Assembly: GCA_040386275.1 (NCBI GenBank)
Contig: JAZKFU010000003.1
Coordinates: 112,554-172,382, forward strand
Length of the DNA: 59,829 nt
Direction of reading: 5' to 3'
DNA from: Patescibacteria group bacterium
Lineage (GTDB): Bacteria; Patescibacteriota; Minisyncoccia; Phycocordibacterales; UBA918
The notes below the pieces were generated by a model, which saw nothing but the letters and a program-made list of their open reading frames with translations, was not told the DNA's origin and ran no database searches. Shown here one piece after another: positions 20,893 through 58,704 of the stretch (position 1 is its first letter; the number at the start of each line of letters is the position of its first letter). Both the position numbers and the translations under genes were made by a program.

Positions 20893-21091
20893 CAACGCTA
20901 TAAACCGCAAGCTAATGCTTGCGGTTTATAGCGTTGTGCCGGGGAGCAAGCAAACTGCTTTGCTTGCGTGCGGGACTTGAAAGACGGAATCATGTCACTT
21001 AGCGACAGATGAGTCGGGGTCGACAGCACTTAGTAGATTTGAAACGTAGTGAACAAATATACTTAGTGACTGGTGACCAAGTCCCACCTCC
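20893..21091 (+). repeat. tRNA-Leu(TAA) trailer element (28-bp-arm palindrome, 25-nt bulged hairpin, inverted T-arm copy, module A, degenerate direct copy)
   Basis: Arms 20885-20912/20917-20944; hairpin 20945-20969; GCGGGACTTGAA 20970-20981; AGACGGAATCATGT...GTGACC; CAAGTCCCACCTCC. Confidence 0.85.
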
Positions 21092-21396
21092 TACATCACT
21101 TTCCAATTTCCATTTATATATTCAGCCACTTGCTTCCCTCCCAACGGCATTCCGTCACCATCAAACCAAACTTCATCTACAGTCATTCTTCCCACTTTAT
21201 TTACCACATAATCAAATTGCCGAACATTTCCTTCTGCATCGGGCTCACTTAGTTGAACTTCAAGCTCAACTAAAACACCTTCTTCGTTATATTTTTCTTT
21301 TTTAATTACCGTATCAGCTCCATCAATTAATTTATCAATATATCCTTGAACTTTTTCGAGCGTTGGTGGAGCATTGAATGTTTCATTATTTTCCAT
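21091..21396 (-). CDS. hypothetical acidic protein
   Basis: 101-aa ORF with protein-like composition; no recognised motif. Confidence 0.6.
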   Translation of the reverse strand: MENNETFNAPPTLEKVQGYIDKLIDGADTVIKKEKYNEEGVLVELEVQLSEPDAEGNVRQFDYVVNKVGRMTVDEVWFDGDGMPLGGKQVAEYINGNWKVM

Positions 21397-21475
21397 ATTG
21401 AAATTGTAACACTAAGAATCATACCTTGTTAAATTAACAATAATCTTGTACACTTTGGCGCACAACCTAACATTT

Positions 21476-21548
21476 GCGCCCTTAACTCAGTTGGTAGAGT
21501 AGCTCCCTCTTAAGGAGACGGTCCAAGGTTCGAATCCTTGAGGGCGCA
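21476..21548 (+). tRNA. tRNA-Lys(CTT)
   Basis: GCGCCCT TA ACTC AGTTGGTA GAGT A GCTCC CTCTTAA GGAGA ... CAAGG TTCGAAT CCTTG AGGGCGC A. Confidence 0.93.
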
Positions 21549-21569
21549 CAAAGGTAAAGTATATAAAGT

Positions 21570-21651
21570 GCGCGTGTGGCGTAATTGGTAGCCGCGTTAG
21601 TCTTAGGAACTAATGGAGCAATCCGTGGAGGTTCAAGTCCTCTCGCGCGCA
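21570..21651 (+). tRNA. tRNA-Leu(TAG)
   Basis: GCGCGTG...TTAGT CTTAGGA ACTAA variable arm GGAGG TTCAAGT CCTCT CGCGCGC A. Confidence 0.93.
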
Positions 21652-21721
21652 CTTTGTACAGTTTACCTAAACGTAAAAACCTTCCATTCGATTGGAAGGT
21701 TTATACGTATCTATTGAGTAA

Positions 21722-22768
21722 CTAAATCCCTCGCAACCTCCCTTTTCTAAACTGGGCGGGTCTGAAGTATTGGTTGTAGTATTTGGCAAAAACTTTCTTG
21801 GCTGACTCTGGCGCTTTATCAGTTACTTGGCACCATCGACCACAGTAACCATTATATTTATTAACACACCCTTCACAGCCTAAAAACAACACGTGACATA
21901 TTTGATTTTTGCAGTGGTAGTGAGTGTCACTTTTTTCGGCTGCGCATAAGTGACAATGAGAAATAATTTCCTCCCCCACTCGCTCCCCTAGCCGTTCATC
22001 AAAAACAAAGTTACTGCCAAGGAATTTGTTAGGCAACCCTTTTTCTTTTACTTGGTGTGCATAATCAATCACCCCACCACGCAGGTGACGCACATCGGTA
22101 AAGCCATTATACTTGAGCCAAGCACTAGCTTTTTCGCAGCGAATTCCCCCAGTACAATAGAGCGCAATTTTTTTATTCTTATGTACGCGCAATAATTCCG
22201 GCGTCACTTTTAATTCTTCTTTAAACGTATCAACGTCTGGTAAAATCGCGTTTTGAAAATGCCCAATCTCACTCTCGTACGCATTGCGCATATCCACCAC
22301 CACAGCCTCAGGATCATCGACATATTGGTTAATTTCTTCGGCAGTTAGATAGGCGCCCGTATCGGTTACATCAAAGGTACTATCATCTAATCCATCAGCC
22401 ACAATCTTATCTTTGACTTTTACGGTTAATTTATAAAAGGAAGAGAAATCTTTTTCCGCTACGGCGATTTTATACGGCACCCCGGTAAGTTCCGGCAGAG
22501 ATTGCAGGAAGGCATCCAGCGCCTCGAAGTTAGCCGTTAAAACGTTCATTTGAGCGTTTATACCCTCTTTCGCAACATAAATGCGTCCTAGGCACTCAAG
22601 TTCGGTAAAACACGTTAAAAGCGTTAATCTAAATACTGCAGGGTCTTTAATTTGGACATATTTGTAGAATGACAAAGTCGTTCGGGGACGAGTATCACGC
22701 GAAATAGCCGCCCGTTTTTCGGCCCGTGGTCGTGCATCAATAAATTTGGCAGGGGTGACTACGTTCAT
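21722..22768 (-). CDS. trhO: rhodanese-related tRNA uridine(34) hydroxylase (TrhO/YceA, UPF0176)
   Basis: SFYKY, GRIYVAKEGINAQ, VDMRNAYESEIGHF, LYCTGGIRCEKAS, HLRGGVIDY, NFVFDER. Confidence 0.92.
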   Translation of the reverse strand: MNVVTPAKFIDARPRAEKRAAISRDTRPRTTLSFYKYVQIKDPAVFRLTLLTCFTELECLGRIYVAKEGINAQMNVLTANFEALDAFLQSLPELTGVPYKIAVAEKDFSSFYKLTVKVKDKIVADGLDDSTFDVTDTGAYLTAEEINQYVDDPEAVVVDMRNAYESEIGHFQNAILPDVDTFKEELKVTPELLRVHKNKKIALYCTGGIRCEKASAWLKYNGFTDVRHLRGGVIDYAHQVKEKGLPNKFLGSNFVFDERLGERVGEEIISHCHLCAAEKSDTHYHCKNQICHVLFLGCEGCVNKYNGYCGRWCQVTDKAPESAKKVFAKYYNQYFRPAQFRKGRLRGI

Positions 22769-23036
22769 AAGAATAAGTGTTTGAAATAATACCTTGAGTA
22801 TCCTTACCTGACAAGGTAACACCACTAACGACCGGCATCATAAAAAGCACTAATTTACTATAGTCCTTTCAGAAAATATCGTTGTTTCTCAAGCATTTTA
22901 CTTGACTTTTAGTATTTTATATGCTATTATTCCCAACAGAGAGGAGGGCACATCCCCCACTACTCAAGGGGGCAGCCGTCCTCAAATGAAATCTAAAGAC
23001 CGCTGGTCTTTGACAATTAAAAATGGAGTAAAAAAA

Positions 23037-56849: not shown

Positions 56850-57551
56850 TTAACTTGTTGTAGTTTGAGCTGCATTTAAAGATTTTGATTGAGTCATGAC
56901 ATTAGAAATATGTTCATGGGGCGAAATTTCAACGGTTTGACAAAGGTAAGATAATTTTCCAATTGCCATGAGCAGACGTTGCTGACTGATAACAGGAGTA
57001 CCATAGGACTTTATATTTTCTACCAGCTCATGAGCATATACTACATTTTTAATCCTCTCTGTTTTAAAAACACCTGAGCCGGTAAATACTACCAAGTTAA
57101 TAAAATTTTCCTCTACAAACGGCATTAATTTTTTTAAAGTTTCAACGTGCCCATAATTTTGCCACAACGGATTTCTTAAAATAAATTTCTTTCCGGTTAA
57201 ATACCTTGCTGTCCACTTTTCATTACTTTTACTTCCAAAAATCCAACCTGAACTGTCTTTGGTTTCTATCACAAAAATACCAAATCGTGACACTACTACA
57301 TGATCTATTTCGGTTGAGGTTGAATGGGATGATGGCAATATCAAATTATTATAAATAAAATATTCATTATGATTTAAACCTTCAGCCAATATCCTCACCA
57401 CCCTTCTTTCTGAGTCGTTTAAATTTTCAGCATAGCATCTATGTCCATGACCGGAATATATAGTACGTTTTGTAAAAAAAATATTTTTATTAGCACTTTT
57501 AACAAGTAGGTAGAGGGAAAGAATGATTATTAAACTAACAACAATATTCAT
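56850..57551 (-). CDS. NERD (nuclease-related) domain protein with N-terminal TM
   Basis: TEIDHVVVSRFGIFVIETKD.SGWIFG, RNPLWQNYGHV. Confidence 0.9.
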   Translation of the reverse strand: MNIVVSLIIILSLYLLVKSANKNIFFTKRTIYSGHGHRCYAENLNDSERRVVRILAEGLNHNEYFIYNNLILPSSHSTSTEIDHVVVSRFGIFVIETKDSSGWIFGSKSNEKWTARYLTGKKFILRNPLWQNYGHVETLKKLMPFVEENFINLVVFTGSGVFKTERIKNVVYAHELVENIKSYGTPVISQQRLLMAIGKLSYLCQTVEISPHEHISNVMTQSKSLNAAQTTTS

Positions 57552-57603
57552 ATATTTAATATGATAGCAGTGGATGGAGATGATCTGGTGTATTTGTGTA
57601 CAC

Positions 57604-57937
57604 GGTCGGGTGCTTGAGGGCAGGCTCGGTCACGAGTTACTAAGTATATTTGTGCATTGCGTGCAAATTCTACTAGGTGTTCTCGACCCGAGAAACAGTG
57701 CCTAAACACTGTTTCTCCCGCTGTTTCGGCTCTAGGAAGAGCCAAAACATGCCTGTGCCTTTCGTTTCTTACAGAAACTGTATACCTTGTCGCTACTTTT
57801 ACATTTCATTCCAAAGTAGCTGGCAAGGTCTTGCAGAGTGACATTGGGTCACTCTTCACCCGCACGTAACTGACATTGGTCAGTTGCTCCCCAAGCACCG
57901 GGTACAGAAATAGCCCCTTGCGGGGCTTTCTGTACGC
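57604..57937 (-). repeat. tRNA-Phe trailer element containing the 25-nt hairpin, module B and module A plus a distal direct copy of the tRNA 3' end
   Basis: Hairpin 57864-57888; module B 57761-57830; module A 57628-57760; GGTGCTTGAGGGCAGGCTC (57609-57627) versus tRNA GGTGCTTGGGGGCGGGCTC (17/19). Confidence 0.88.
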
Positions 57938-58012
57938 GGTGCTTGGGGGCGGGCTCGAACCGCCGACCCCTTCCTCTTCAGGGAAATGCTCTACCAACTG
58001 AGCTACCCAAGC
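57938..58012 (-). tRNA. tRNA-Phe(GAA)
   Basis: Reverse complement GCTTGGGTAGCTCAGTTGGTAGAGCATTTCCCTGAAGAGGAAGGGGTCGGCGGTTCGAGCCCGCCCCCAAGCACC. Confidence 0.95.
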
Positions 58013-58109
58013 GTGCTGTGGCGGACTATGATGGCTTTTGACCTTCTTAGAACGTACCCGCCATTGTACCTGTTTCTTGATTTATTTCAACCAAATATCA
58101 AGGCATGTT

Positions 58110-58403
58110 CTACTGCTGTCCCTGATAGATTTTTAACGCTTCCTGGAGAAGTTCGTAGTTACTCGTACTTTGGGTCTCAGTGCCTCCAAAATTGCTCATA
58201 AAGGCATTGTAGAGGTAATAGTAGGCAAAGAGTGGTAAGCCGAGCAATACCACGTACCAGGCGATTTTAAACCAAAATTGCCGAATCTCCCTGCGGTCAA
58301 TTTTTTGTAATAATTCGTGATTAGCTACGAGCAACTCATGGTTTGCCTTGGTAAGCTCTAGAATGGTTTCTGCCTCTTGTTTTTCCGGTAATTCTGGATT
58401 CAT
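58110..58403 (-). CDS. small single-TM hypothetical protein
   Basis: ILELTKANHELL..I.RR...WFKIAWYVVLLGLP. Confidence 0.7.
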   Translation of the reverse strand: MNPELPEKQEAETILELTKANHELLVANHELLQKIDRREIRQFWFKIAWYVVLLGLPLFAYYYLYNAFMSNFGGTETQSTSNYELLQEALKIYQGQQ

Positions 58404-58449
58404 ATCAATACAGTATAGCAGAGGAAATTATGCTAAAATGCCCGCACTT

Positions 58450-58521
58450 GCCCACATAGCTCAATGGATAGAGCTACTCCGTCCTAAGGAGAGGATCCTG
58501 GTTCGATTCCGGGTGCGGGCA
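58450..58521 (+). tRNA. tRNA-Arg(CCT)
   Basis: GCCCACA TA GCTC AATGGATA GAGC T ACTCC GTCCTAA GGAGA GGAT CCTGG TTCGATT CCGGG TGCGGGC A; A5.C68 mismatch. Confidence 0.9.
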
Positions 58522-58704
58522 CATTGATGCAAACTAATAAACACTCTTCAAAAAGAAGAGTGTTTATTAGTTTAGCAAGCAACCTGCGTTGCTTGCGGGC
58601 ATCAATGTGAGACGGAGTCATGTTTTCTCCTCCTTCCTAGAGGAGGAAACAGACGAGTCCGGTGAGGAAGTTCTTATGAGTGTCAGCGAATTAGAAACTT
58701 GACC
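58522..58704 (+). repeat. tRNA-Arg trailer element (long palindrome, 25-nt hairpin, module A variant)
   Basis: Hairpin 58574-58598; AGACGGAGTCATGT at 58610; TTATGAGTGTCAGCGAATT shared with the Val element. Confidence 0.85.

Follow-up and report, generated by a model that had tools for sequence, protein, structure and literature searches.

A short hairpin, H2, that stands behind tRNA genes in a 59,829-nt stretch of DNA from a Patescibacteria genome (the window) forms the constant core of a seemingly undescribed family of small non-coding insertions. The elements are ~130–250 nt long and lie directly downstream of tRNA genes in the same orientation. We see an even chance that these mini-elements target tRNA genes with two arms that pair with the target, and that H2 is the constant handle between them.

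H2 hairpins in the window

All six hairpins listed in the preliminary description, in the Leu, Ser, Glu, Val, Phe and Arg trailers, were found in place (Table 1). H2 is present at six of the nine tRNA genes in the window, and every true match starts 45–51 nt downstream of a tRNA gene on its own strand, counted from the gene's 3′ end. Scanning both strands of the window for AG-N8-loop-rcN8-CG, with a loop of 4 or 5 nt, returned five perfect and seven one-mismatch matches, compared with 0.013 and 0.28 expected from 300 first-order Markov shuffles. The pattern is thus non-random; the seventh match (58259), which has one mismatch and lies in a coding region, is a chance match. The hairpin is strand-specific, conserved and tightly linked to antisense copies of tRNA 3′ ends, as had been described.

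Fixed ends and a compensating 8-bp stem had also been claimed. The ends and the compensation were borne out, but the helix has 9 bp, because AG contributes its G, and CG its C, to a further base pair in 19/19 distinct hairpins; the junction nucleotides are A on the 5′ side and G(U/G/A) on the 3′ side. In these 19 hairpins, which come from related loci as well as the window, pairing holds in 98% of cells, with double changes at eight of the nine pairs, and drops to 26–46% in registers shifted by 1–3 columns, counts that are partly circular because the set was picked by complementarity. Mismatches in the same set comprise no G.U and three A.C. The loop sequence is not free: CTGC is preferred, occurring in three of the six hairpins in the window and in 84 of 99 tRNA-linked cases, the latter figure being inflated by metagenome loci that were fetched with a CTGC-containing 24-mer.

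A three-way junction on the tRNA 3′ segment

H2 is one helix of a three-way junction. The others are P1, in which the tRNA 3′ segment (P1a) pairs with the 10–12 nt past H2 (P1b), and H1, a long terminator-like hairpin, so that the element reads P1a – H1 – A – H2 – G(U) – P1b – module A, B or C. This junction is the predicted MFE and centroid structure, with z = −14.2 (Leu, where H2 folds as a separate 9-bp helix), −10.3 (Arg) and −7.4 (Ser). The junction, the conserved downstream modules and the whole unit as an insertion are points absent from the preliminary description.

In the commoner class, an extra arm 5′ of H2 (arm 1) complements the acceptor 3′ strand, and the two arms together pair with ~22 contiguous tRNA bases from the T-loop to the 3′ end; H2 projects at the T-stem/acceptor junction. 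That the hairpin sits within 0–2 nt of this junction had been noted for four trailers, and the rule holds widely: of 74 locatable pairings, 58 place the tRNA base paired beside H2 at 8–12 nt from the tRNA end called by ARAGORN, and the target is contiguous across H2 in 41 of 55. Arm 1 corresponds to the acceptor 3′ strand as its Watson-Crick complement and does not copy the 5′ strand (15 v 1), which erases G3.U70 in tRNA-Ala, and arm 2 pairs through the T-loop; there is therefore no T-loop elbow. A second class (n = 15, including Glu and Arg) pairs the arm past H2 with the last 4–6 nt of the tRNA and 5–7 nt of the trailer.

Some copies depart from this plan. In L246, and to some extent in the Arg type, the element itself contains P1a, so that P1 can be wholly internal and not a guide–target duplex. 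Young copies at L170 have imperfect arms (7/10 and 10–12/12 paired), and targeting may accordingly depend less on pairing than is proposed here. H2 is optional; in simple forms without it, H1 bears the CUGC loop.

Table 1. Features of the elements in the window
Feature	Position	Strand	Details
H2, tRNA-Leu(taa)	20945..20968	+	A / G-C + CAAGCAAA-CTGC-TTTGCTTG / G
H2, tRNA-Ser(cga)	44320..44344	+	5-nt loop TCAGT
H2, tRNA-Glu(ttc)	44694..44717	+	loop GAGT
H2, tRNA-Val(gac)	50099..50122	+	
H2, tRNA-Phe(gaa)	57865..57888	−	one C.A mismatch
H2, tRNA-Arg(cct)	58574..58597	+	
Leu target in tRNA	20873..20894	+	P1a (T-loop + T-stem 3′ strand) 20873–20884; acceptor 3′ strand + 3 nt 20885–20894
Leu H1 and arm 1	20895..20944	+	H1 core hairpin 20895–20934; arm 1 tgtgccgggg 20935–20944, antisense of acceptor 3′ strand, 28-bp perfect hairpin with 20885–20894
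Leu arm 2 (P1b)	20970..20981	+	gcgggacttgaa; complements T-loop/T-stem 20873–20884
Leu module A	20983..21078	+	GAC-GGA-AUC..hairpin..GAU-GA-GUC 20983–21015; 3′ hairpin domain 21016–21078
Leu degenerate repeat of tRNA 3′ end	21078..21095	+	follows module A
Ser element 5′ domain	44277..44355	+	H1 44277–44306; arm 1 44310–44319; H2; arm 2/P1b 44346–44355; arms pair with tRNA 44253–44273
Ser module B	44356..44421	+	GUUGCCAGC-hairpin-GCGACAAC, GUACUGAAGCUGUAGGC
Ser direct repeat of tRNA 3′ segment	44422..44442	+	1 mismatch
Glu element, 3′-end type	44639..44838	+	H1 44650–44693; H2; P1b 44718–44728; module A 44730–44838
Glu P1a	44639..44649	+	last tRNA bases + trailer
Val element	50033..50245	+	P1a in tRNA 50033–50043; acceptor 3′ strand + H1 + arm 1 50044–50098; H2
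Val P1b	50124..50134	+	one U:G pair with P1a
Val divergent module A	50137..50229	+	then degenerate repeat ~50230–50245
Phe composite element	57609..57937	−	H1 57902–57937; arm 1 57889–57901; H2; P1b remnant 57859–57863
Phe element, further parts		−	extra hairpin 57835–57855; module B 57764–57828; degenerate module A 57628–57759
Phe repeat of tRNA 3′ end	57609..57627	−	
Arg element, 3′-end type	58520..58708	+	H1 58531–58573; H2; P1b 58599–58609; module A 58611–58708
Arg P1a	58520..58530	+	tRNA CACA + ttgatgc
Cys(gca) family member without H2	20044..20172	−	H1 20138–20172; P1b 20122–20134; module B 20068–20121
Cys repeat of tRNA 3′ segment	20044..20067	−	24 nt
Solo module A past ftsZ, without tRNA or H2	42021..42155	+	closed by flanking helix gctggtacgg/ccagtgccagc

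Modules and range of the family

The structured modules that come after P1b matched no Rfam family in any of the three classes. The module-A pattern was found at 32 genome loci; 29 have titles that name Patescibacteria lineages, and nearly all of the loci lie directly past tRNAs of many identities. An exact 24-nt version of H2 recurs at no fewer than 120 metagenome loci, behind 31 tRNA species, with varying flanks and the three module classes downstream. Neither this sequence nor the module-A pattern matched viral contigs. Judging by these sequences, the family is restricted to Patescibacteria, a group of ultra-small bacteria.

Insertion behavior

Exact repeats of at least 10 nt accompany 30 of the 41 T-loop-type elements; they begin 0–5 nt inside P1a, and most stop no more than 3 nt from the tRNA end. 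No such repeat was seen among 12 elements of the 3′-end type, which are inserted past a short stretch of tRNA-end sequence and have repeats of 0–7 nt. Repeat lengths are 4–59 nt overall and 10–59 nt in the main class. At L170, two sister elements with modules 97% identical lie behind two tRNAs, and each carries a 16–17-nt repeat of its own tRNA, which identifies the repeat as a target-site duplication roughly matching the arm footprint. The Arg element matches one at tRNA-Leu(gag) in L147 with 98% identity over 157 nt; the mobile unit of the Arg type begins directly past the tRNA 3′ end, and its left ends vary.

Tandem arrays also occur (in L188, one identical unit is repeated), and rplE holds one copy in its 3′ end, with a repeat of 6 nt; others stand behind ftsZ and after other genes. 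Occupancy of orthologous tRNAs is patchy: tRNA-Lys(ctt) is empty in the window and filled in L146 and L122. A search for an empty/filled pair at strain level found none. As no transposase, recombinase or RT was found, mobility is judged by comparative anatomy only; by this measure the units behave as non-autonomous insertions.

Partner proteins and RNA signals

No protein family was linked to the elements across 154 loci, where the best cluster (11/154) was housekeeping, and no Y1/HUH transposase, RAYT, IntI or integrase recurred there. Transposase, integrase and RT domains were absent from a Pfam scan of 44 window ORFs, and a motif search over 1.1 Mb of loci gave no RT. The preliminary description had proposed a protein-recognition site; the recurrence of the exact H2 beside 31 tRNA species with changing flanks is as expected of a handle, but the enzyme side of the proposal found no linked candidate.

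Mismatches in the H1 stem are of G.U type 16 times and of A.C type once, so H1 functions as RNA, on the strand of the tRNA; it may terminate transcription upstream of H2. Module mismatches showed no strand bias (9 v 7), and no GNRA excess was seen on the sense strand.

A proposed mechanism and its alternatives

In the mechanism to which we assign an even chance, the target would be selected or held through base pairing of the arms. H2, with its invariant G-C foot, its A and G(U) junction bases and its preferred CUGC loop, would be the handle for a putative inserting machinery encoded elsewhere. The active form may be ssDNA or RNA. In a geometry that fits the junctions, a single-stranded copy would anneal to the sense strand through its arms, its 5′ end would be joined to a nick at the distal duplex end to give the H1 hairpin, and its 3′ end would prime recopying of the segment to give the repeat. 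We counted several observations against this reading: the missing enzyme, the imperfect L170 arms, the internal P1a, the optional H2, the RNA-type mismatches of H1, the unbiased modules and the lack of a strain-level empty/filled pair.

Two alternatives seem unlikely to us, in equal measure. The first is a SINE-like retroposon, a tRNA read-through transcript copied by a trans-encoded RT through target-primed reverse transcription. The arms and H2 would fold the RNA on its own 3′-terminal tRNA segment, with no target search, the folded rod or tRNA-like end would be processed and recognized, and targeting would result from annealing between the nicked gene and the sense tRNA segment at the RNA 3′ end. 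The placement and orientation of the units, the start of the Arg-type unit at the tRNA 3′ end with variable left ends and the range of repeat lengths (4 to 59 nt) are consistent with this, as are a microhomology between the element 3′ end and the T-loop (by eye), a Ser MFE structure that pairs the arm past H2 with the downstream repeat, and three interchangeable 3′ modules resembling SINE tails. However, no RT was found in the 1.1 Mb of loci by motif search or in the scanned window ORFs, H1 resembles an efficient RNA terminator upstream of the unit, the modules and H2 have no G.U excess, and the sense strand has no GNRA excess.

The second is a host-serving cis-acting RNA whose three-way junction would sequester the tRNA 3′ end and trailer and whose module would recruit, or be, a nuclease, with a role in tRNA 3′-end formation, termination or quality control and the repeats as by-products. 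A unit at seven of the nine tRNA genes of an ordinary chromosomal window would suit such a role, yet orthologous tRNAs are patchily occupied, and copies lie in rplE, behind ftsZ and downstream of further genes. In favor of this role, corresponding tRNA-Glu(ttc) elements ~80% identical have preserved P1 and other helices through double substitutions (two of them in P1 of the L138 counterpart), the old Leu copy retains 22/22 arm pairing though its downstream repeat has decayed, and the H1 mismatches indicate that H1 works as RNA. Against this stand the tandem arrays, near-identical copies behind different tRNAs and the lack of a match to known ribozyme or leader families, and the very tRNA served would have its acceptor and T arms unfolded if pairing were complete.

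It is improbable that, as first proposed, H2 is an ssDNA hairpin recognized by an HUH/Y1 enzyme (IS200/IS605 TnpA, RAYT-like) or an integron-type integrase. The flanking arms would behave like IS608 guide sequences, and the strand specificity, conserved foot, flank-pairing arms and absence of terminal inverted repeats agree with it, as do the strictly Watson-Crick pairing of H2 (0 G.U) and the 3′-end type with its 0–7-nt repeat. But no such family is linked in the 154 loci or present in the 44 scanned window ORFs, the main class has 10–59-nt direct repeats, arms of 10–12 nt flank the hairpin on both sides in place of a 4-nt guide 5′ of it, and a cassette array is absent.

We give very little credence to an L-shaped tRNA mimic made of arm 1, H2, arm 2, module and downstream tRNA segment, with H2 standing in for the D and anticodon arms (a D-arm substitute had been suggested) and tRNA enzymes using the RNA: H2 does sit exactly where bases 8–48 leave the acceptor/T helix, its 9 bp and tetraloop would approximate D/anticodon arm length, and the Ser fold closes on the downstream copy, but arm 1 complements the 3′ strand and abolishes G.U identity pairs, arm 2 pairing extends through the T-loop, both the trailer and the discriminator base are base-paired, in Leu and Val the downstream copy decays, the helices of the Glu/Arg class are not tRNA-derived, and neither ARAGORN nor the Rfam tRNA model calls anything at the hairpin units.

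Comparison with known systems

IS200/IS605 elements, the non-autonomous PATEs derived from them and REP/RAYT are strand-specific and have a subterminal hairpin whose adjacent internal bases pair with the flanking target. The present elements share these features, the conservation of the hairpin, the lack of terminal inverted repeats and the small protein-less derivatives. They differ from IS200/IS605 in that an arm of 10–12 nt stands on either side of the hairpin in place of the 4-nt guide, target duplications are long, tRNA 3′ segments are the targets and no Y1 transposase or TnpB was found; IS200/IS605 insertion is not known to make direct repeats. Like SINEs and MITEs, they are short, non-coding, non-autonomous and multi-copy, with variable target duplications and modular 3′ parts, but they are specific to tRNA gene 3′ segments, carry antisense arms around a conserved hairpin, and have neither terminal inverted repeats nor a known partner element.

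Group I introns of bacterial tRNA genes use an internal guide sequence in P1 and P10. They too are ~200 nt, protein-less and in tRNA genes, with the guide aligning the bases that flank the insertion point and a junction 3–4 bp above the P1 base. In contrast, a group I core would not fit into our unit, which matches no Rfam intron, and nothing needs splicing because the upstream tRNA is complete. The guide–hairpin–guide topology on a contiguous target recalls the box H/ACA pocket, an archaeal and eukaryotic system, but here the target has no unpaired dinucleotide (contiguous in 41/55), and there is no ACA box or lower stem.

Two short guides also flank a constant structured element in the bridge (seek) RNAs of IS110/IS1111 and the tigRNAs of TIGR-Tas. 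Those guides pair with opposite DNA strands (for TIGR, PMC12045711), whereas both arms here pair with one strand, contiguously. No recombinase or Tas gene is adjacent, and there are no spacer arrays; the L188 array repeats one identical unit.

In type V-K CRISPR-associated transposons, a delocalized crRNA matches a tRNA gene and acts as a homing guide. Both systems are mobile elements with a nucleic-acid guide matching the adjacent tRNA gene, but ours is ~100 times smaller, has no Cas or Tns genes, occurs in Patescibacteria rather than cyanobacteria, and has a hairpin-split guide that directly abuts its target. Integrative elements that target tRNA genes duplicate the 3′ part of the tRNA in attL/attR. 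As with those, the repeat here spans the T-loop to the tRNA 3′ end and leaves the upstream tRNA intact; our elements differ in being 130–250 nt long and without an integrase, in carrying an antisense copy of the site, and in having a repeat that is derived from the target, as in the L170 sisters, and not borne by the element.

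A hairpin of fixed geometry behind tRNA genes

The window comprises 59.8 kb of ordinary core chromosome (IF-2, RbfA, ClpB, GyrA, S1, FtsA, FtsZ and others) at 43% G+C, with nine tRNA genes. All six H2 hairpins that the preliminary description had located behind the genes for tRNA-Leu, Ser, Glu, Val, Phe and Arg were found in the sequence at those places, and each starts 45-51 nt after the end of its same-strand tRNA gene. We scanned both strands of the window for the pattern AG-N8-(4-5 nt)-rcN8-CG, using first-order Markov shuffles as the control. The scan returned 5 perfect and 7 one-mismatch matches, against 0.013 and 0.28 expected in the shuffled sequences, so the enrichment over shuffled sequence at issue in the preliminary description is borne out in the window. 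One extra match, with a mismatch, falls within a coding sequence.

We compared 19 distinct versions of H2. The G of the leading AG pairs with the C of the closing CG in every one of them, and the helix is thus of 9 bp. Its closing pair is an invariant G-C, with an unpaired A before the helix and G(U/G/A) after it. Pairing holds in 98% of cells, with no G.U pairs and three A.C mismatches, and double changes occur at eight of the nine pairs. The earlier claim of a varying stem with compensation is therefore upheld as far as variation and pairing go; since the set was selected by complementarity, the double changes illustrate compensation and do not prove it.

In addition to the six H2 elements, tRNA-Cys is followed by a unit of the type we call B that has no H2, while the tRNA-Lys(ctt) and tRNA-Leu(tag) genes of the window carry no unit; seven of the nine tRNA genes in the window thus have one. 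A relative, GCA_040384005.1 (L153), is 98.3% identical, and its Ser and Glu elements show no differences from those of the window, an identity that says nothing on selection because divergence is confined to patches elsewhere. This patchiness suggests recombination tracts. The HNH endonuclease gene that abuts tRNA-Leu(taa) also lies between tRNA-Cys and tRNA-Leu(taa) in L146 and L133, as judged by DNA similarity, and is thus a syntenic, tRNA-abutting gene of homing-endonuclease-like character.

Features in the window and in related loci from other genomes or metagenomes (L numbers); positions are those of the sequence named
Feature	Sequence	Positions	Strand	Remarks
HNH endonuclease ORF	window	20339-20821	+	160 aa, PF13392; ends inside first bases of tRNA-Leu(taa)
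Module A 3' domain	window	21016-21078
Three consecutive small ORFs	window	25667-26894	-	133, 103 and 128 aa; all PF18895 (type IV secretion system pilin family)
Solo module A	window	42021-42155	+	directly after ftsZ; no tRNA, H1 or H2; enclosed by flank-formed helix with U.G pair
Module A 3' domain	window	42084-42146
Module A 3' domain	window	44776-44838
Divergent patch relative to L153	window	46550-47980		holds almost all of 78 differences
tRNA-Phe trailer composite	window	57609-57937	-	H2 arms, extra hairpin, module B, degenerate module A, then tRNA 3' repeat
Extra H2-scan match	window	58259
N runs	L141	about 1460-2140		break tRNA-Leu(gag) trailer exactly at repeated H2/module-B units
Tandem array	L188	4060-4730	-
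Element in rplE	L246	7590-7790	+
HTH/GLMLYDGEG gene (others occur)	L129	1778-2500
HTH/GLMLYDGEG gene	L135	5258-5911
HTH/GLMLYDGEG gene	L201	350-1006
HTH/GLMLYDGEG gene	L264	4786-5412
HTH/GLMLYDGEG gene	L271	1155-1832

Arms beside H2 are complementary to the tRNA end

Every H2 forms part of a three-way junction, as one of its arms. Directly after it, 10-12 nt (P1b) complement a segment ending in or just after the tRNA (P1a), and a long, often terminator-like hairpin (H1) lies between P1a and H2. RNAfold gave this junction as both the minimum free energy and the centroid structure for the Leu and Arg elements (z = -14.2 and -10.3, respectively). Two classes can be told apart by what is paired. 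For Leu, Ser, Val and Phe (the T-loop class), P1a is the T-loop and the 3' strand of the T-stem, and the 3' strand of the acceptor pairs with a further arm that precedes H2; in all, some 22 contiguous bases of the tRNA are engaged, and H2 sits at the junction. For Glu and Arg (the 3'-end class), P1a consists of the last 4-6 bases of the tRNA and 5-7 bases of its trailer.

We could place the pairing in 74 of 99 tRNA-linked cases, drawn from the window and from related loci. Its boundary is 8-12 nt from the end of the tRNA in 58 of them and 3-8 nt past that end in 15. Across H2, the target runs without a break in 41 of 55 cases, and the arms match the local tRNA at 38 tRNA species, a correlative observation. 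By Watson-Crick rules, the arm that precedes H2 complements the 3' strand of the acceptor and does not copy the 5' strand (15 versus 1); at tRNA-Ala, it turns G3.U70 into A-U. We rejected one apparent sign of selection on the arms, their better fit to the copy within the tRNA than to the downstream copy (15:0), which is uninformative because the tRNA copy is itself constrained. Mismatches in the arms (about 29) and changes in the downstream copy (about 31) are similar in number.

Conserved modules follow the arms

One of several conserved modules follows P1b. Module A has the motif stem-GGA-stem ... stem-GA-stem, in which both stems covary (57 distinct stem combinations); it was found after 90 of 191 H2 instances, and its motif is followed by a second hairpin domain in three subtypes. 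Module B is a large hairpin followed by GUACUGAANCUGUAAGN, and module C was seen in metagenome loci only. None of the three matched Rfam in a gathering-score search of the window or in E-value searches of three element regions.

The 3' domain of module A, in the window as in many loci, has a symmetric CUUAG/CUUAG step with a conserved U.U mismatch and an apical mini-hairpin of the GCGAAGC or ACGAAGU type. Among isolated mismatches of the modules, T.T (21) and G.A (18) are the most frequent. Pairing of the CUGC loop with the GCAG of the module A apical loop (CAGCAG) was considered and rejected as a general feature, as it is confined to a subset of simple forms (L126, L121, L128, L137, L142, L146 and L149); in these the two may form a loop-loop contact, and one case covaries (L126, CUAC with CAGUAG). 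Inspection by eye also led us to reject the GGA/GA loop and CUGA as parts of a hammerhead, a K-turn or a box C/D motif, because core positions misfit.

The element family is concentrated in Patescibacteria

Searching one genome per species, we found the module A pattern at 32 loci, 29 of which are titled as Patescibacteria lineages (Saccharibacteria, Paceibacterota, Parcubacteria, Kaiserbacteria, Zambryskibacteria). With few exceptions, these loci immediately follow a tRNA gene on the same strand, and the tRNAs concerned are of many kinds. A canonical H2, ending 11-13 nt before GACGG, is present in about 13 of the 32; simpler forms have no H2 and carry the CUGC loop on H1 instead. Two module A loci with typical tRNA-element architecture, L139 (titled Patiriisocius sp.) and L140 (titled Acidimicrobiales), come from MAGs titled as non-Patescibacteria and reflect either mis-binning or real spread outside the group. 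A match in Flintibacter (L127), within coding sequence, is apparently due to chance.

The commonest exact 24-nt H2 occurs at no fewer than 120 metagenome loci. Among the 123 matches listed, 66 lie 9-68 nt behind a tRNA called by ARAGORN (31 anticodon species), and the remainder lie behind repeat copies or other elements. Viral contigs contained no match to the module A pattern or to the H2 24-mer, which gives no link to phages; 120 matches to a class-B pattern in viral contigs were discarded as chance, none having a hairpin in the gap. Our search of the literature on tRNAs, RNA motifs, ribozymes and mobile elements of Patescibacteria/CPR found no description of the family.

Evidence for insertion

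Behind 30 of the 41 T-loop-class elements, the tRNA 3' segment recurs as an exact direct repeat of 10-59 nt. The repeat lies 80-130 nt after H2. Its first base corresponds to a position 0-5 nt into P1a, its last is in most cases no more than 3 nt away from the end of the tRNA, and it roughly equals the footprint of the arms. No exact repeat of this length was found in the 12 elements of the 3'-end class, which have short variable repeats (CACA, CGCAAA, GACAAG). In L170, elements with 97% identical modules sit behind two tRNA genes that are neighbours. Each element has beside it a repeat, 16-17 nt long, of the tRNA that it follows, and its arms are imperfect, which argues that the repeat is made from the target and that the arms travel with the element.

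Near-identical copies also occur at different tRNA genes. The Arg element of the window is 98% identical over 157 nt to an element behind tRNA-Leu(gag) in L147 (94% in L145, 85% in L144), with identity beginning right after the common tRNA end GGGCACA and stopping at ...CTTGACCCCAA. tRNA-Lys(ctt), empty in the window, is filled in L146 and L122. An element also lies in the last codons of rplE (ribosomal protein L5), with a 6-nt repeat, CATTGG; there, the C-terminal ...IG* has become ...IGLPLVAKTE*. In the window, a solo module A follows ftsZ. Identical units form tandem arrays in L121, L128, L130 and L188, and a B unit is followed by an A unit in L139, L147 and the window's Phe trailer. In the L188 array, a 136-nt unit (H2, P1b, module A) is repeated head to tail without change, five and a half times, and the array's end falls inside the 3' arm of a sixth H2. 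The N runs in L141 are probably assembly gaps caused by tandem elements.

Proposed mechanism and alternatives

A constant hairpin stands between two variable arms that are complementary to the duplicated segment. The reading that we favour is that the arms hold or select the target through pairing and that H2 would serve as a handle for machinery whose genes lie at another site. A more far-reaching version, less likely than not, is that these are protein-less mobile elements whose insertion site is chosen by base pairing: the two arms around the constant hairpin would anneal to some 22 contiguous bases in a tRNA gene, and that paired segment would turn into the target-site duplication. Such a mechanism would be novel, guide-defined and programmable by nature, driven by a putative trans-acting Patescibacteria enzyme or by the modules as ribozymes. 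At one and the same end of the duplex lie the arms' 5' end and the 3' end of the paired target; in our model, joining them would yield the observed H1 hairpin. The 3' end of the element has 2-3 nt in common with the T-loop and could prime re-copying of the tRNA segment, leaving the direct repeat.

The active form may be RNA or ssDNA. Mismatches in H1 stems are of the G.U type in 16 cases and of the A.C type in 1, and H1 therefore works as RNA on the tRNA strand. The corresponding numbers for H2 are 0 and 3. The modules show no such strand bias (9 versus 7), nor was an excess of GNRA or UNCG loops found in a strand test (9 versus 5).

SINE-like retroposition, with arms that serve intramolecular folding, is an unlikely alternative; a motif search of the loci found no reverse transcriptase. 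The elements could also be host cis-acting structures of tRNA 3' ends, to which we give a similarly low probability. The helices of the Glu elements in the window and in L138 are kept through double substitutions, so the structure is under some constraint; the copies in rplE and directly after ftsZ speak against a host function at tRNA ends.

The preliminary description had compared H2 with sites of HUH transposases and integron integrases, and a specific site of either kind now appears improbable. IS200/IS605 and REP-RAYT systems have a Y1/HUH transposase or RAYT and, near either end, an imperfect hairpin whose foot has a guide of 4 nt on its 5' side; they insert 3' of a fixed tetra- or pentanucleotide with no target duplication. 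Pfam found no Y1/HUH transposase or RAYT among 44 ORFs of the window, and none recurs across 154 loci; the exact 10-59-nt repeats of the T-loop class likewise speak against insertion without target duplication. In hairpin placement the comparison is mixed: a hairpin lies near the left end of the element and the right end falls in the foot of the 3' domain hairpin, but the arms measure 10-12 nt and lie on both sides. Integron attC sites are imperfect palindromes with extrahelical bases, at cassette boundaries next to intI. H2 stems are perfect, there are no cassette ORFs and no integrase, and all copies are behind tRNA genes. The suggestion that H2 replaces a D-arm in a tRNA mimic is very improbable, as tRNA-like structures have a cloverleaf with a T-loop elbow that tRNA models detect, neither ARAGORN nor Rfam RF00005 reports anything beyond the nine genuine tRNAs, arm 2 (after H2) pairs through the T-loop, and arm 1 (before H2) complements the 3' strand and does not copy the 5' strand.

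Clustering of neighbour genes at the 154 loci revealed no recurrent linked protein family; the best cluster reached 11 loci, and the top clusters were all housekeeping. ORFs beside truncated copies (L165) were rejected as partner genes, being ordinary flanking genes. Proteins of about 220 aa with an N-terminal HTH and a LAGLIDADG-like GLMLYDGEG occur at nine Patescibacteria loci, and in several the gene stops 9-15 nt before a same-strand tRNA gene.

Significance

If insertion guided by base pairing holds, a compact parasitic or commensal element accompanies the majority of tRNA genes across a large branch of the bacterial tree that is still poorly understood, a notable load for genomes of about 1 Mb. 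A constant hairpin framed by two arms that complement the duplicated target points to base pairing as the means of target choice, with no protein gene linked to it, and the partner enzyme, once identified, could yield a programmable insertion system of a new type. Even when read as cautiously as possible, the data define no fewer than three structured modules that lack annotation (A, B and C), together with a 24-nt hairpin that can serve as a marker for Patescibacteria. The elements explain tRNA 3' fragments and assembly gaps beside tRNA genes in these MAGs.

Comparison with known systems

Intrinsic terminators are G+C-rich hairpins followed by a U tract. The neighbouring H1 hairpins fit this description; H2 was rejected as a terminator, as it never appears in the terminator-scan list and is followed by arm sequence. 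Self-cleaving ribozymes, introns and other Rfam families were likewise set aside: the gathering-score search of the window returned tRNAs only, and the E-value searches of three element regions gave only sub-threshold hairpin noise. CRISPR and TIGR-type guide arrays consist of constant repeats with different spacers next to cas or tas genes. TIGR spacers pair with opposite strands, and the TIGR-Tas system differs from the elements described here (PMC12045711). An array of either type was rejected, since each tRNA has a single copy, such arrays as exist are made of identical units, and no protein is linked.

Of the known classes compared, the elements clearly fit only the generic one, that of a non-autonomous insertion element (MITE/SINE-like): they are short, non-coding and multi-copy, with target-site duplications and near-identical copies elsewhere. 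Terminal inverted repeats, a feature of MITEs, were not found in them. In logic, they resemble the guide-hairpin recognition of IS608, the homing guides of CAST, bridge RNAs, the internal guide sequences of group I introns and H/ACA pockets.
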